Origin: a virus
Direction: 5' to 3' (one strand)
Virus record (IMG/VR): IMGVR_UViG_3300047091_000002
Location: 55,488 to 119,487 of that record
Length of the DNA: 64,000 bases
Shown here: one piece after another, positions 28,096-40,635 of the stretch
Position numbering within the stretch: the stretch's first letter is position 1
Layout: every line of letters begins with the position of its first letter
The notes under the pieces: generated by a model
Seen by the model: the letters and a program-made list of their open reading frames with translations, nothing else
The model's database searches: none
What the model was told of the DNA's origin: nothing
Translations under genes and position numbers: made by a program

Positions 28096-28184
28096 TCCGG
28101 TAAGCCCCCGTCAATACCAAATAATATAATAGTGAAAATAAGGACCGCATCTATAAACCATCTAAGAATTCTATATTTAAACAC
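27993..28184 (-). CDS. Small membrane protein
   Basis: Two hydrophobic segments; first gene after the 28219 promoter. Confidence 0.5.
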   Translation of the reverse strand: MFKYRILRWFIDAVLIFTIILFGIDGGLPDWELIIFLLLLVTLSAIGNTLLEIGAEKFGKGEL

Positions 28185-28190
28185 TATGAT

Positions 28191-28219
28191 ATTATAACAT
28201 AATTAAATTAATTTGTCAA
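28191..28219 (-). promoter_or_regulatory. Consensus sigma70-type promoter (leftward)
   Basis: TTGACA - 17 nt - TATAAT with TG extension. Confidence 0.75.
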
Positions 28220-29449
28220 GTATTAAAGTGCAATATTTAAAACTTTTGAAAAGTATAGAAAATATATTAGGAAAATATCGAAATGTGTGAAGTGCCTAAT
28301 CTTATCTAATTCTAAATTTCTATCTAAACTTAACAAAATCCAACATTTAGAAAGATTAAAATCGATAAGCATTTATTTAGAGAGACAGTGAAGACTTTTG
28401 ATAAACCTTTCTCGCCACAATACCCTTAATATTTATATATATTTTATATAAGATTAGAGCAATTTATATACCAGGTTGATGTGGCTAGTGAGAACTTTCT
28501 CTTTCAGAGAAAGAGCGTTTTTGTTCCTTTGTTTTCTATACCTTAATCAATACTGACTGGTAGGTAGGTAGAACTACCGTTTGGTAGGTGATTATATATG
28601 TTGATATATATAGAGTTATAAAGCGTTTAGTAGATGATACATAGGTGTGGGAATAAGGTATATATAGTTCTATTATGAAACATAAGAGAATAAATATAAT
28701 AGAATGAATATGTTAGATAAAGCCTAACATATATTTATCTACTACATTTGTAGTTAGTTGCACAATAATGCAGCACTACTCTGCGATGAGAGGGTGTCAT
28801 TTATGTTGAGGTTTTTGATGTTTTTCTAAAAATAGATGTGCAGGAGTATAATGATAAAATCGGGTGCTTAGAAAGATATATAAATATCATAAGTATATGA
28901 TAATAAATAAGATAATGAATAAATAAATATAATAAGATAGACTAGATGCATTGAGAAGTAGACAGAGTATTAGAGTATCATATCTCTATAGCTATATACT
29001 ACTATCTATCTAAGTATAAGAAAATAAAGAAGTAAGTATAATAAAAGAAAATAGATATAAATATCGTAAATATAAGAAAAGAATAGAGATAATAGAAATA
29101 GAGTGAATGTAGACAGTACATATCCTTATCTATTCGGTATATTATATGGTACTAACTAGGAAAGTATATCTATATAGTTTGGTATATGGTTCATGCTGTA
29201 TCTTGTGGCGTGTATAGGGCTATGTAATTGTTATACATCCTTATCTGCTTACTATCTTGTAGAGTGTGCATTGTGATGTGTAAGGCAGTATGATTATACT
29301 GCTATACTCTCTATAGCATGTGCAGTGCATAGATGTTGTTATCTATAGGGTATATCCGTATATGCTATGGTGGGCCAGTGTGTTGTAGCCCTTATATGTC
29401 CTATATAGAGGAATAGTTCTATTGAGCTTGTGTTGTATACGTTTTTATA

Positions 29450-29479
29450 TTGACATTCCCTTATACTCTATGTTATACC
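29450..29479 (+). promoter_or_regulatory. sigma70-type promoter (rightward)
   Basis: TTGACA - 18 nt - TG n TATACC. Confidence 0.55.
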
Positions 29480-29517
29480 CTTTATTCGGTTCTAAATTTT
29501 AGGTTGGAGGGTAGGAA

Positions 29518-29655
29518 ATGAACAATCAGTGTGCAGCAGTTATTCTAGTTTTAGTAGCAATCGTCGTTGTGTGGGGCGATATTCTTATTCATAACAGCAA
29601 GGTGGTAAGGGTGGCAGGTAAGGGTAGCGCAGGCAGTAAGTATAGCAAAAGATAG
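29518..29655 (+). CDS. Small membrane peptide (45 aa)
   Basis: GGAGG RBS; MNNQCAAVILVLVAIVVVWG...; own promoter and terminator. Confidence 0.55.
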   Translation: MNNQCAAVILVLVAIVVVWGDILIHNSKVVRVAGKGSAGSKYSKR

Positions 29656-29686
29656 TTGTAGGTCAATAAATTCTCATCGAATGTAT

Positions 29687-29716
29687 AGGCTAGGCTATCG
29701 CAGTCTAGCCTTTTTT
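29687..29716 (+). terminator. Intrinsic terminator
   Basis: AGGCTAGGC-TATCGCA-GTCTAGCCT-TTTTT. Confidence 0.75.
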
Positions 29717-30310
29717 GTGTCTACTCGACTATTTTAGCTGCGTTAGCTTAAACTGCGTTAGCATCTTTAGTTTGTAAGCCTGTAATTAGTAATGTCTAAT
29801 CTATTAGTATTACAGTATCATCGTTCCTGTAATTCCCTTTTCAGTAAGTCTATATCTCTTGTGTCACACTATATAAGATTTATTTATTTAGTGTATAAGG
29901 TTTATATAGAAAACCGGGGATTTATCGCATTATCGGACTCAAGTTAAGTTGTTCATTCTAAAGGTAGTTAGGGGAAGTGCAAAAAAGGGTATACCGCAGT
30001 ACCCTCTACATCTGGGCTTTGATGAGTCTACTATATTAGTTTCTATCAGTTACAAGGGTTTCAACAGGAAAAGGGCAAGTTGTGGAAAACTCGTTACAGG
30101 GCATCCTAGAGCGTTTTTTCTGGCATTATAGTTGCTTCGCGTGTGCGCGTTCTATTCTACTCTATTTCGAGATAATAAGATGTAATTTGTAAAACAGGAT
30201 ATATCTCTTACAAAGTAGTTTGTAAGTATCTATCAAGAGTACAGAGGTTACTTCAAGTTCCTTGAGCAAGTGCTATGCCAATTATTTTTATATATTCCTT
30301 TATTTTTTGC

Positions 30311-30338
30311 TTGACATTAGTTTGAATCTGTAGATAAT
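30311..30338 (+). promoter_or_regulatory. sigma70-type promoter
   Basis: TTGACA - 16 nt - GATAAT. Confidence 0.6.
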
Positions 30339-30341
30339 AGG

Positions 30342-30610
30342 GGCTGTCGCAGGAAAGCGGCAAAATCGAGCAAGGCGCGGGGAGCGCAAGGATTTGAATA
30401 AACCAAGTGGCTTGCGCGATTAACTCGAAAGGGTGAAAGGCAAGTTTAGAATAAAGGTTTGTAACTTGCGAAGTTGTTTACTGGCTAGACTTTGATTCGC
30501 TTAGATGTTCGATTCTAACCGATGAAATCCGCAAGTAAAAGATAGATAAAATGCAACCAGTATCTACAGTATTTAATAAAAGAAAAGGCTAGGCGCAAGT
30601 CTAGCCTTTT
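30342..30610 (+). ncRNA. Candidate ~265-nt structured RNA
   Basis: Between promoter and terminator, no ORF; GNRA-type hairpins, GCGCAAG/CTTGCGC and TTAGAAT/ATTCTAA helices. Confidence 0.55.
30583..30610 (+). terminator. Intrinsic terminator
   Basis: AAAAGGCTAGGC-GCAA-GTCTAGCCTTTT. Confidence 0.75.
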
Positions 30611-33220: not shown

Positions 33221-33367
33221 ATGCCTGAGAACTTTGAAAGCAGTTTAGTATCTGAATTTACTCAAAACTGGATTGACGATCTACAGGCTAAGATTAAAGC
33301 AAAAGGACTCAATCCAAATATGGTTAGGTACGTATGCGAAGATTGCGACCAGAATTCTTACGCATAA
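33221..33367 (+). CDS. Hypothetical protein (48 aa)
   Basis: AGGAGG RBS; MPENFESSLV...CEDCDQNSYA. Confidence 0.5.
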   Translation: MPENFESSLVSEFTQNWIDDLQAKIKAKGLNPNMVRYVCEDCDQNSYA

Positions 33368-33446
33368 GGGGGGTAAGCTATGAAACCAAGCTGCGGGGTT
33401 TTAATTTCTGACTAACAGAATAAAATGTAGAGGGTAACAGTACCCT

Positions 33447-33866
33447 CTACATAACATCAAAATTTGAAGGTATATACATAATTTCGTTTTTATTATCGGG
33501 AAAGACTAACGCCAAAACATCGTATTTAGTTGTATTTACTGGCTTTGCATAGGTTATCTTTCCCTTATGAGATATTCTTGCGGTTTTAATTTCTATTCTA
33601 TAGAGTTGGTCATTTTTTTGCGCTATGATGTCAGCAGAACAAGACGGGGAAACAGCCCTAAAAACCTCGAACCCTCTATGAAGTAGATCAGCGCACACTA
33701 TTAACTCGGACGCAGCCCCCGTACTAGCTGGCGTACTGGCAGATATTGTAAGCGGTTTAGGAAGCGCGTAACTTAGAGATTTACACTTTTTAGTACAAAA
33801 AAGTTGTCGGTATTTATATACAGATTTGTATTGCTTACCGCAATTTTTACAAGATTTGTAAAACAT
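33447..33866 (-). CDS. PD-(D/E)XK endonuclease (I-Ssp6803I/PDDEXK_5-like homing endonuclease) with N-terminal Zn finger
   Basis: GAASELIVCADLLHRGFEVF...ADIIAQK...IEIKT; CxxC...CxxxC N-terminus; inverted relative to neighbours. Confidence 0.8.
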   Translation of the reverse strand: MFYKSCKNCGKQYKSVYKYRQLFCTKKCKSLSYALPKPLTISASTPASTGAASELIVCADLLHRGFEVFRAVSPSCSADIIAQKNDQLYRIEIKTARISHKGKITYAKPVNTTKYDVLALVFPDNKNEIMYIPSNFDVM

Positions 33867-33889
33867 TTTAATATTTTATCACAGTTACA

Positions 33890-35725
33890 GCGATTTGTCA
33901 AATACGTTTGGGACATCTAGGCAAGGTATCTAATACGGTATCTTGCCTTTAAGCATTGCTAGGTTTGTTTGTAGGTTAGTTACTAATGAAAGTGAGGTAT
34001 CTATATGCTGCCCTAGATAATCTGCGGTTGCGAGATTAAAAAGGCATACAAACAAAGAATACAATTTTAACGCAATTGGCAAGGTGGATTTATTCTATCT
34101 TGCCTTTTGCTGTCGCTAGGTTCGATTTTAAGAGGTTTTTACTTCTAGAATGAATCTTTCCTAGTCTAAGGCGCAACGATTCGTTAAAAACGATTCTAGC
34201 GCATTTATTAACATACTCTATGCCTATAGATATTTTCTAGGGTATAGGGTTTAACCGATTCTGCAATATCGGAAAAATTGCAATGCTAAACACTCTTTAT
34301 CGAAGTGGCGGAAAGCACGTTAGCGGGACGCTGACCCTTATTCGCAAGCATTATAAGTAAATCGGTTATGTCAGAGTAACGAGTCAGATCAATGACGTTC
34401 AACACAATTGACTGTGATATTTGACTTGCTGATTAATCCATTAGCGACGTATAGGGCAAGGGCTGATTACGTTAAGCTATAAAGTTTTGTTATTGACCGG
34501 AGATGACCGAGGCCACATTGTAAAATGAGGGTACACGCTACCTCCCAACGCAGTGACGAAGGAAAACTGCGTTCAAGATGCGACGAAAGCACCTTGTCTC
34601 AATAACAAATCAGGCAATACCCGTGAAGTGGTGGAGTAGTCGGTTCTAGGTTGGAAGTAGAAGGAAACTTCTATATAATATCTAGTGACGCTGGCAAAGA
34701 GTGGCAGAGGGAAATTAAATATAAATTTTCTTTATAGGGGCTGCCCTTCCTAGCTATAGGGTTTAACCCGTCGTAAGTAGTATAAAAAACGACAAGATAC
34801 AGCCGTCACTTTAGGTTCCTAGAACATAGACAAAATTACATAGACAGGATTTCGTGAATGCTATGGCTACTCACGAAACTAGGGACTTTTATTCCTAGTA
34901 GTACGAGATTGACGACCGGGGCGTGTCTCATTTAGCAATCGGTATGTTTATTATAGAGAATTGCATATTGAGCGTGTGAACGTGTGTGTCGTCAACCGAA
35001 CGGCTACCTTATGTGATAGTTAAAAAAGCCTAGTCAGATAGTCCAATAGATGTAAAACTGCGTAATCACGGAGTACCGACTGGTACTCTAGCTGGCAAAA
35101 CCTTAGTGAGATATGTAATTGAGCATATCAAAACTCTTTGTACCTAGTTTCGTGGTCGTTGCGCGTTCTTTTTTGTAGCATCATGCGAGGATAAAAAAGA
35201 ACAAGTTTAAGAAACCTACGCAGTTTTACTAAATTAGTCAATCGTGAAATCTTCGTGATTCCAGATAACATGCTGGGCGAGATTACTCGTTGCTATAACT
35301 CATAGTGTGACGAGACTCGATAAATGATTGACTAATTTAGTCACATCGAGCGATAATAGAGTATATAACTCTGGAGCTTGGACCTAATCACTGACGATAA
35401 ACTCTATGATTAGCGGGTAGAACGCGAATGCCCGAATAGCCGATAGCTGCGGATCAATTGTAATGGATAGTCATCAAGGATTTTCCACCTCTTAAACTCC
35501 TGGATTCTCCGTATACATCCCCATATGACTATCTGTTTCAGTTGATCCATATGCGACGAAGGCTTAATTTGCGCGTCGTTTCTTGATTCATCTAAAAGAA
35601 ACGTTACAACCAGATGACAACCTACCTTAGATTATTCTCTATTAACCTCAAAGTTCCCTGTAATGCAGTCTCAAAGTTCCTTAGCGATTTGAAAAGACAT
35701 TTCGGATAGATTTATTCTATCGGAA
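33890..35725 (+). ncRNA. Candidate giant structured non-coding RNA (or RNA cluster)
   Basis: No ORF of 60 aa or more; many perfect 8-17 bp nested helices (e.g. 35052-35064/35217-35229, 35229-35245/35324-35340); adjacent to tRNA. Confidence 0.75.
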
Positions 35726-35834
35726 TTAACGATAAACGATTACAGTGATTTGAGTACAATTCAGATAACTATATTAGTTATTGGAGCTAACGACAAGTTA
35801 ATATGGTAATTTAAGGTAGGTTGAAAGATAATTT

Positions 35835-35907
35835 GGGGCTATGGACAAGTGGTTAAGTCGTTTCCCTTTCAAGGAAAAGATCGAGGGTTCAAATCCCTCT
35901 AGCCCTA
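35835..35907 (+). tRNA. trnE: tRNA-Glu (UUC), CCA not encoded
   Basis: GGGGCTA/TAGCCCT acceptor, D arm with GG, TTTCC-CTTTCAA-GGAAA anticodon arm, GAGGG-TTCAAAT-CCCTC T arm. Confidence 0.95.
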
Positions 35908-36231
35908 CATAATATCGAAAATAGATTTTTAGAAAAACAATAGAAAGGCATCACCAATGATTTCAACAGTACAGGAATTAATTGATCAATTGAAAAAATT
36001 TGATCCGTTGGCAAAACCGATGATCTACAATCCCAACATGGAATGCGATGAGGAAATACACGCCATAACAGCATTTCCCCAAGAGAATGTTGTTATTTTA
36101 GATTAATGACTTGGAAAAAAGAGGTTGATTCTGTGAGCGCAAGCTTATACGGAAATTACAGCATTGAAAGCTTAAAAAGAATTCATACTGGTTCGCGCCT
36201 AGTGTGTCTTTCGATAGGTTCTGCGTAAAAC

Positions 36232-36614: not shown

Positions 36615-36959
36615 ATGTTCTCAACTACAATAGAATCTGGGGGAATGAAGAGATCCCTTACGTTATTTGTTGACGACATAGATGTAGGATTTATTTTTAT
36701 CCGTATTGACAAATTAACGGGGACATTTTCTACTCTTAATGTTTATTATAAATATAGAGGGAAGGGATACGCCCAACAAATACTTAAAGATGCTATTAAG
36801 CATTGCCAACTCCTCGGACTACGGAAAATTGAAACCTCTATTCTTGCCAAAAACAAAACCTCAATGCACATACACAAGAAAGTCGGATTCGAGATAGTTT
36901 CATCAAAATCTACCATTCAAGGAAAAGAATTCTTTTTACGGAAAATTTTGTCTAAATAG
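36615..36959 (+). CDS. GNAT-family acetyltransferase
   Basis: VYYKYRGKGYAQQIL acetyl-CoA motif A; NKTSMHIHKKVGF motif B. Confidence 0.85.
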   Translation: MFSTTIESGGMKRSLTLFVDDIDVGFIFIRIDKLTGTFSTLNVYYKYRGKGYAQQILKDAIKHCQLLGLRKIETSILAKNKTSMHIHKKVGFEIVSSKSTIQGKEFFLRKILSK

Positions 36960-39971: not shown

Positions 39972-40202
39972 TTGGTAAAAATGCCGCTTAAAGAATATGA
40001 AGTTAGAAATATACTTACAAATACGATAGTTGTGGAAGCTTATTTGGATTTACTTAGTCGCAATCTTTTTACCCATCCAAATTCATACCCAGAAGATGTA
40101 GAAAAAGAACTTCCAAAAATAATAGAAATGGTAGGAATACTTTCTCGAACCACAACTAGACTATTAGAAATCTATGATAACCGTAATTCTAATCTCACCT
40201 AA
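39972..40202 (+). CDS. Hypothetical protein
   Basis: ORF track. Confidence 0.45.
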   Translation: MVKMPLKEYEVRNILTNTIVVEAYLDLLSRNLFTHPNSYPEDVEKELPKIIEMVGILSRTTTRLLEIYDNRNSNLT

Positions 40203-40635
40203 AGACGAATTTAATGTTGCTCAATCCTTAAGAAATCTAGCAGAATTAGCCGGAGATGAGCCAGCTAAATTAGTTGTTGTTAATCGTAGATACGTACCGG
40301 CAACAGGAGAAAAAGGCGATAGAAAACCCCGACCCTTTAGAATGAAGGCGTATGACCACGTTCAAGTTGAATATCATGAATCAATTCCTAATTGGGCTTA
40401 TCTTGATTCTGGAAGAACTGTTGTGGTAGAATGTTTAGACTGGGCTACATCCCTTCCTACCTTTAAACACCCTAAAAATCCTATCTATATATTCGGACCA
40501 GAAGATGGAAATATCCCTAAATGGATTATCGAAAAGACAAAGAAGTATGTTAAAGTAGAGACTCTCGAATGTCTCAACTTGGCAATGGCAGTGGGGATTG
40601 TAATTTATGACAAGAAAATTAATCGCCAGGCGTAG
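40174..40635 (+). CDS. SPOUT (SpoU/TrmH/TrmL-like) RNA methyltransferase
   Basis: NVAQSLRN motif 1, IYIFGPEDG motif 2, CLNLAMAVGIVIYD motif 3. Confidence 0.85.
   Translation: MITVILISPKDEFNVAQSLRNLAELAGDEPAKLVVVNRRYVPATGEKGDRKPRPFRMKAYDHVQVEYHESIPNWAYLDSGRTVVVECLDWATSLPTFKHPKNPIYIFGPEDGNIPKWIIEKTKKYVKVETLECLNLAMAVGIVIYDKKINRQA

Follow-up and report, generated by a model that had tools for sequence, protein, structure and literature searches.

The window analysed here, 64,000 nucleotides long, covers bases 55488-119487 of IMG/VR record IMGVR_UViG_3300047091_000002, the 119,487-bp genome of an uncultured virus with direct terminal repeats, whose annotated terminase and capsid genes identify it as a phage. 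Up to ~28.1 kb of the window the genes lie on the minus strand, including those for the large terminase and the major head protein, and rightward of that point they lie on the plus strand, with the GC skew switching there too. The gene-free stretch considered below is located in this rightward, presumably early arm of the phage. Its true extent is 33867-35834, and it is bordered on the left by a small nuclease gene and on the right by a tRNA gene. The features of the locus, in window coordinates, are as follows.

33447-33866, minus strand: P0003, 139 aa, with a zinc ribbon and a PD-(D/E)XK endonuclease domain; left border of the locus.
33846-33874, plus strand: weak candidate promoter, TTTACA-17-TAATAT, 9 of 12 positions by consensus match only; inferred start at ~33881.
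33873-33901, minus strand: strong sigma-70-type promoter, TTGACA-17-TAAAAT with TG, 11 of 12 positions, leading leftward into P0003.
33881-34112, plus strand: candidate separate small RNA unit of ~230 nt (fold z -4.07), ending in two terminator-family hairpins.
34113-34470, plus strand: predicted structured domain with helix 34252-34260/34360-34368 and the first copy of TATAGGGTTTAACC (34243); clear plus-strand preference.
34466-35030, no strand assigned: middle segment with hairpin 34547-34573, helices 34684/34804 and 34909/34988, the second copy of TATAGGGTTTAACC (34755) and the first of the two promoter-like sites.
34651-34679, plus strand: promoter-like site, 10 of 12 positions.
35049-35347, plus strand: two adjacent predicted multi-branch domains, with a perfect 13-bp helix (35052-35064/35217-35229) and an 18-bp helix (35228-35245/35324-35341).
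35328-35357, plus strand: promoter-like site, TTGACT-18-GATAAT, 10 of 12 positions, inside the 3' arm of the 18-bp helix.
35340-35620, plus strand: predicted structured domain with the long hairpin 35451-35474/35525-35548; strong plus-strand preference.
35618-35823, plus strand: predicted 206-nt domain closed by a 19-pair helix with three G.U pairs; ends 11 nt before the tRNA.
35835-35908, plus strand: tRNA-Glu(UUC), found by ARAGORN and by Rfam (72 bits), with a G1.U72 wobble and CCA not encoded; right border of the locus.

P0003 matches Pfam PF11645 (E 7.8e-7) and phrog_5018 (E 5.6e-12), and its homologues span up to 94% of the 139-aa form; on these similarities it is probably a free-standing homing-type nuclease. 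The public gene call for P0003 is 83 aa only, and the homologues cover the 139-aa form including its CxxC...CxxxC zinc ribbon. The promoter of P0003 is a member of the phage's TTGACAAAT promoter set and stands back to back with the weak candidate promoter at 33846-33874; its -10 element ends 7 nt before the ATG (33866), so the P0003 mRNA would be leaderless. At the other border, tRNA-Glu(UUC) is the genome's only tRNA in ARAGORN and Rfam at normal thresholds, and downstream of it in the same arm are small ORFs, a GNAT gene (36615-36959) and a SpoU-type RNA methylase gene (40174-40635).

The stretch 33867-35834 is non-coding. A preliminary description, made from the sequence of 33890-35725, had noted almost 2 kb with no ORF of 60 aa or more, and this is borne out, as the longest ORFs within those coordinates are 50, 47 and 46 aa. 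All six frames of the full stretch contain TAA, TAG and TGA (41-60 stops per ~655 codons, each stop codon type 8-24 times per frame), and in all frames the stop density is equal to or above the random expectation. No split ORF flanks the stretch, no ORF of at least 15 aa has a convincing ribosome-binding site, and the ten longest stop-free fragments match nothing in Pfam or PHROG. A coding sequence hidden by a reassigned stop codon or a split gene, in favour of which there is nothing except the lack of ORFs, is hardly conceivable and is effectively excluded: all three stops are frequent in every frame, the best single reassignment opens no more than 112 codons, and the remainder of the phage reads normally with table 11.

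The first part of the stretch carries terminators. A hairpin family, GGYWAGG...CTWGCC followed by a T run, has five copies in the genome, all on the plus strand (29687, 30589, 33017, 33920 and 34078) and all confined to 29.7-34.1 kb, the first 4.5 kb of the rightward arm. Three copies stand at gene ends, one of them after the P0002 stop codon, and two lie within the stretch, at 33919-33948 with a weak U tail and at 34078-34104 with a TTTTGCTG tail, the latter also matched in a terminator scan. When the five copies are aligned, one G.U pair is kept in all of them and 5 of the 12 stem pairs have changed on both sides while still pairing; 33919-33948 and 34078-34108 thus have the GC hairpin, U tract and compensated stem of intrinsic terminators. 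The compensated stems, the kept G.U pair and the position at gene ends indicate that the family represents working intrinsic terminators of plus-strand RNA, and the copies at 33919 and 34078 therefore indicate that plus-strand RNA is made there and probably stopped. With two such hairpins in the first ~240 nt, the first 230-240 nt look like a separate short unit, and the family as a whole implies many short early transcription units. Between 34104 and 37963 the terminator scan found no plus-strand terminator-like site, even before the small ORFs past the tRNA. With no plus-strand terminator from 34108 up to 37963, a single transcription unit could take in the other 1.7 kb together with the tRNA and the small ORFs behind it.

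Promoters are less conspicuous. On its plus strand the stretch lacks a strong promoter of the TTGACAAAT type seen elsewhere in the phage, and the best two sites, at 34651 and 35328, match at 10 of 12 positions. The -10 element of the 35328 site resembles that of a promoter at 30311, and this site is the nearest plausible promoter for tRNA-Glu. A T7-type promoter reading of CTATAGGG was rejected; the motif occurs only twice, and no T7-type polymerase was found in a search that was equally silent for control genomes.

Segments of the stretch were folded on both strands and scored as z against dinucleotide shuffles. The controls were six segments of the same phage, five of them coding and one from its other gene-free stretch; three were folded on both strands, and the resulting nine folds gave z from +0.11 to -3.24. 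The values for the stretch are listed here.

33905-34470: plus strand z -6.57, minus strand z -2.15.
34113-34470 (sub-segment of the above): plus strand z -4.32, minus strand z -0.18.
34466-35030: plus strand z -2.92, minus strand z -3.75.
35040-35350: plus strand z -4.95, minus strand z -4.07.
35340-35620: plus strand z -4.42, minus strand z -0.22.
35610-35830: plus strand z -6.36, minus strand z -4.00.

The plus strand is favoured in four of the five segments, with z from -4.3 to -6.6. In the strong segments the plus-strand centroid is near the minimum free energy (for example -100.8 versus -102.4 kcal/mol for 34113-34470), whereas control centroids are far from it. As the strong segments go beyond the controls, ~1.35 kb of the locus carries a signal of predicted structure that favours the plus strand, and the middle 0.55 kb is without signal: there (34466-35030) folding is no better than in the controls and has no strand preference. 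The earlier remark that G-U pairs favour the plus strand holds in so far as the fold z-scores do so, but counts of G.T versus A.C where perfect seeds end are unbiased. Thermodynamic z-scores alone are weak proof of RNA function. Two early genes upstream of the stretch also fold at z -2 to -3, and z-scores in 200-nt sliding windows do not separate the stretch from them; these genes, P0001 (30808-31836, 342 aa) and P0002 (31968-32975, 335 aa), both lie upstream of P0003, and their mRNAs fold somewhat better than shuffles.

The predicted architecture is one of moderate-sized domains. Span-limited folding yields domains of ~0.2-0.6 kb, all well-supported helices span at most 260 nt, and no credible helix ties the whole stretch together. 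When folding is left unconstrained, the 5' end pairs with the D-arm region of the tRNA; the long-range pairs obtained in this way break the tRNA cloverleaf and are thus an artefact rather than evidence for long-range structure. Moreover, the hairpin loops in the span-limited fold are AT-rich and only one GNRA tetraloop was seen, unlike in typical ornate RNAs.

Dense nested helices had also been proposed for the stretch. All nine of the named arm pairs are indeed complementary (7-17 pairs each, with at most one wobble apiece), but not all the complementarity in the stretch is nested: a 12-bp pairing (34872-34883/35143-35154) crosses the 13-bp helix 35052-35064/35217-35229, which means that a single nested fold cannot accommodate every pairing, and some of the long ones are mutually exclusive. 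Long inverted and direct repeats are far more numerous than expected. Inverted 12-mers within 400 nt were observed nine times against a mean of 0.06 in 500 dinucleotide shuffles, and direct 12-mers six times against a mean of 0.20 in as many shuffles. Genome-wide there are 12 perfect inverted repeats of at least 12 bp (span up to 400), four of which lie inside 34872-35823, and two further ones are gene-end terminators just upstream of the stretch. The longest perfect inverted repeats of the stretch measure 12, 13, 16 and 12 bp.

Several sequence elements occur as pairs. The 14-mer TATAGGGTTTAACC, with copies at 34243 and 34755, is absent from the rest of the genome; CTAG and a TATAG word stand ahead of both copies, and a 5-bp hairpin, different in sequence at each copy, comes after. 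Similarly, a hairpin that pairs a T-rich with an A-rich arm comes after TTGCGCG at both 35159 and 35569, again with differing stem sequences. ATGCGACGAARGC, GATTTATTCTATC and CTCAAAGTTCC each have two copies in the stretch, a 14-nt unit is repeated in tandem (34824/34838), and the word ACTGCGT or its complement ACGCAGT is found at four sites, which makes alternative pairings possible. No copy of these modules exists elsewhere in the genome. Such repeats suggest that the stretch grew as small hairpin modules were duplicated and kept their stems, and they fit a constraint at the RNA level without being proof of one.

A comparison with Rfam, above all with GOLLD, ROOL, OLE and the introns, had been proposed as a check, and it yielded no known family: with the covariance models of Rfam 15, the stretch matches no family at the gathering score, nor, searched in 2.6-kb and 1-kb pieces, at E <= 10. 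GOLLD (RF01998), ROOL (RF03087), OLE, group I and group II introns, RNase P RNA, 6S RNA, tmRNA and ribozymes are among the candidates rejected for want of an Rfam match, and judged by its sequence the stretch is a member of no catalogued RNA family or intron class. That it has no group I or II intron core, as the preliminary description had it, agrees with the lack of a match in Rfam, of a split ORF and of a reverse transcriptase in the genome; the last point also led us to reject a retron. A decayed tRNA array or tmRNA was rejected as well, as no extra tRNA appears at Rfam E <= 10 and extra ARAGORN calls, which arise only at an 80% threshold, overlap a terminator hairpin and were judged spurious. 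Neither a tRNA-like fold nor an enrichment of T-arm-like hairpins was found in the stretch, which also contains no rRNA-type boxA, no tRNA top-half mimic and no DnaA box.

In their position, GOLLD and ROOL are the closest parallels, as these RNAs often have tRNA genes as neighbours, often reside in prophages and may share a transcript with the tRNAs (PMC5737381). As with them, gene-free sequence that folds well into several domains lies immediately before a phage tRNA, which starts 11 nt past the last helix; the phage or prophage setting, often beside a tRNA, that is known for GOLLD is present here. In contrast, the stretch is 1.7-1.9 kb long, compared with ~0.6-0.8 kb for GOLLD and ROOL, it has internal terminator-like and promoter-like sites, and it has no covariance-model match at E <= 10. 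[quoted passage not shown]

A further parallel is offered by phage T4, whose tRNA cluster gives rise to small stable RNAs, species 1 and 2 (RNA D and RNA C), from one precursor with the tRNAs. They are released by host RNase P together with other RNases, and their function is unknown; the cluster also includes free-standing homing nuclease genes such as segB. By analogy, the present locus may resemble the T4 cluster in that a structured RNA would abut a tRNA while a homing-type nuclease gene forms the opposite border. However, T4 species 1 and 2 are tRNA-like and only ~120-140 nt long, whereas the stretch is more than ten times longer and shows no tRNA-like fold. A third likeness is to intrinsic terminators: the hairpins at 33919-33948 and 34078-34104 share a sequence family with the three gene-end hairpins, but this accounts for the first 240 nt of the stretch only.

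The search for relatives showed the phage to be, as far as sequence comparison tells, an orphan with almost no known relatives. Its large terminase has one relative, at 42% identity, whose structural genes are 40-52% identical and in the same order; this sole detectable relative, JGI contig Ga0613822_001227, ends at the strand switch, before the locus. At that switch the contig has ~115 bp, not 2.5 kb. An alignment of the portal protein found nothing in viral contigs, and P0001 and P0002 have no homologues in collections of 1.84 billion and 5.8 billion proteins, in viral contigs or in phage records. In a blastn search of the stretch against 50,697 phage records the tRNA was the sole match. A pattern anchored on tRNA-Glu found nothing in viral contigs or genome contigs and a single, unrelated tRNA-array contig (L003) among metagenome contigs; in this contig the tRNA-Glu (2877-2950) belongs to a six-tRNA array and is 93% identical to the phage tRNA over 56 nt, with nothing else in common. 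The repeated-module pattern gave no match in viral contigs and five chance matches without further similarity in genome contigs, the surroundings of P0003 homologues at five loci (L004-L008) have nothing in common with the stretch, and 401 genomes of one bacterial phylum contained only chance matches of 24-43 nt.

Taken as a whole, the locus is best read as several modules that would fold independently, and not as one demonstrated giant RNA. The reading that we tentatively put first is a plus-strand non-coding RNA locus in which a small terminator-bounded RNA precedes a long leader or precursor, structured and built of modules, that ends at tRNA-Glu, with RNase P freeing the RNA or RNAs upstream of it. 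Its first unit (~33881-34108) would be a small RNA of ~230 nt, or a transcript end, closed by the two terminator-family hairpins. Its second unit (~34113-35834, 1.7 kb), which has no terminator, would be made up of structured domains along with partly duplicated hairpin modules, and would run into tRNA-Glu and the small early ORFs. Host RNA polymerase may transcribe the second unit from the weak internal promoters (34651 and 35328) or by read-through, and RNase P would then cut at the 5' end of the tRNA (35834/35835) and free the structured RNA upstream, at least the nearest 0.2-0.5 kb. By analogy with GOLLD, ROOL and the RNAs of the T4 tRNA cluster, the freed RNA might persist as one or more stable accessory RNAs. 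Transcription, RNA ends, processing and any function of the locus are what we infer. Evidence against a functional RNA also has to be considered: the best plus-strand promoter sites reach only 10 of 12 positions, the middle 0.55 kb has no signal, and the longest helices are perfect Watson-Crick helices, as a recent duplication or inversion at the DNA level would also yield. The locus is a single-sequence candidate, put forward from thermodynamic and repeat statistics.

The preliminary description had favoured a single RNA of 1.4-1.8 kb. Its observations of a non-coding stretch outside the catalogued families hold, as does plus-specific structure for ~1.35 kb, but the single RNA does not follow from them, and the alternative it also mentioned, several RNAs in tandem, is the better fit. 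A single giant ornate RNA (~1.4-1.9 kb), reaching from ~33881 or 34113 to the tRNA and folding as one unit, is distinctly unlikely. In its favour, the 1.7 kb between 34108 and the tRNA lacks a plus-strand terminator and has strand-specific structure at both ends; the four ACTGCGT/ACGCAGT sites and the motifs repeated across the stretch could link its distant parts, and it would adjoin a tRNA as GOLLD and ROOL do. However, two terminator-family hairpins (33919-33948 and 34078-34108) fall in the first 240 nt, promoter-like sites (34651 and 35328) lie inside the stretch, and the middle (34466-35030) stays at control level without strand preference. In addition, none of the well-supported helices spans more than 260 nt, complementarities over distances above 600 nt are no more frequent than chance predicts (an estimated ~2 expected), the unconstrained fold obtains long-range pairs only by breaking the tRNA, and no homologue was found in the collections searched. 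If it were true, this RNA would found a new class, with a size two to three times that of GOLLD or ROOL. A narrower form, in which RNase P releases the 1.7 kb from ~34113 to the tRNA 5' end as one continuous RNA that folds by itself, is scarcely any more credible, and perhaps slightly less so. Such an RNA would surpass in size all structured non-coding RNAs so far known from phages and would found a family unrelated to GOLLD and ROOL, built with duplicated hairpin modules, in which contacts within or between molecules could be made through ACTGCGT/ACGCAGT and the TATAGGGTTTAACC module.

One may argue instead that the stretch acts at the level of DNA or is merely a regulatory spacer, composed of protein-binding sites, scars of recombination or duplication, or remnants of mobile elements, and that any RNA from it has no function of its own. 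We consider this unlikely, though it deserves the most attention among the alternatives. The perfect inverted repeats (12, 13, 16 and 12 bp) would suit recent DNA events, and there are short tandem and direct repeats (the 14-nt unit, CTCAAAGTTCC and the 14-mer, each present twice); the gene next to the stretch is that of a homing-type nuclease, another 2.5 kb of the phage (28096-30600) is likewise free of genes, and the G.T and A.C counts at seed ends are balanced. On the other hand, in two segments the plus strand folds much more stably than the minus strand (z -4.3 versus -0.2 and -4.4 versus -0.2), which is not expected of double-stranded DNA sites, and the other gene-free stretch, used as a control, folds at z -1.0. 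Nor are there DnaA boxes, module copies elsewhere in the genome or target-site duplications flanking the arms at 35618 and 35823. That the stretch is the decayed remainder of genes, or of an array of tRNAs or introns, is very unlikely: a lone tRNA could be the last survivor of an array, and the stretch is a lineage-specific orphan, but its stop-free fragments match no Pfam or PHROG family, no intron family matches, extra tRNAs are missing at Rfam E <= 10 (with the 80% ARAGORN calls judged spurious), and stop density is no lower than random in any frame. Moreover, junk would not be expected to fold 4-6 standard deviations beyond shuffles on one strand only.

RNAs of the GOLLD/ROOL type beside phage tRNA genes are among the least understood RNAs of bacteria and phages, and each unrelated RNA at the side of a tRNA helps to tell whether the linkage reflects shared processing or shared function. 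A plus-strand precursor of the kind that we tentatively prefer would add a very large, modular and sequence-unrelated tRNA-linked case from a phage lineage of which hardly any relatives are known; at present it is not an established new class.

Three neighbouring regions may be mentioned. The second gene-free stretch (28096-30600, 2.5 kb, 33% GC) lies at the strand switch, with a perfect promoter reading leftward at its flank (28219); folded as a sample of 566 nt, it does no better than shuffles (z -1.0), unlike 33867-35834. Between the P0002 terminator and a bidirectional terminator (33425-33452), a 48-aa ORF (33221-33367) with a strong GGAGG ribosome site is, by these signals, probably a real small gene. 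The third region, 30311-30610, begins with a near-consensus promoter (TTGACA-16-GATAAT); the next ~270 nt contain no supported ORF, and after them comes a bidirectional terminator (30583-30610) that belongs to the five-copy hairpin family. On this sequence evidence the region is a candidate separate early small RNA.
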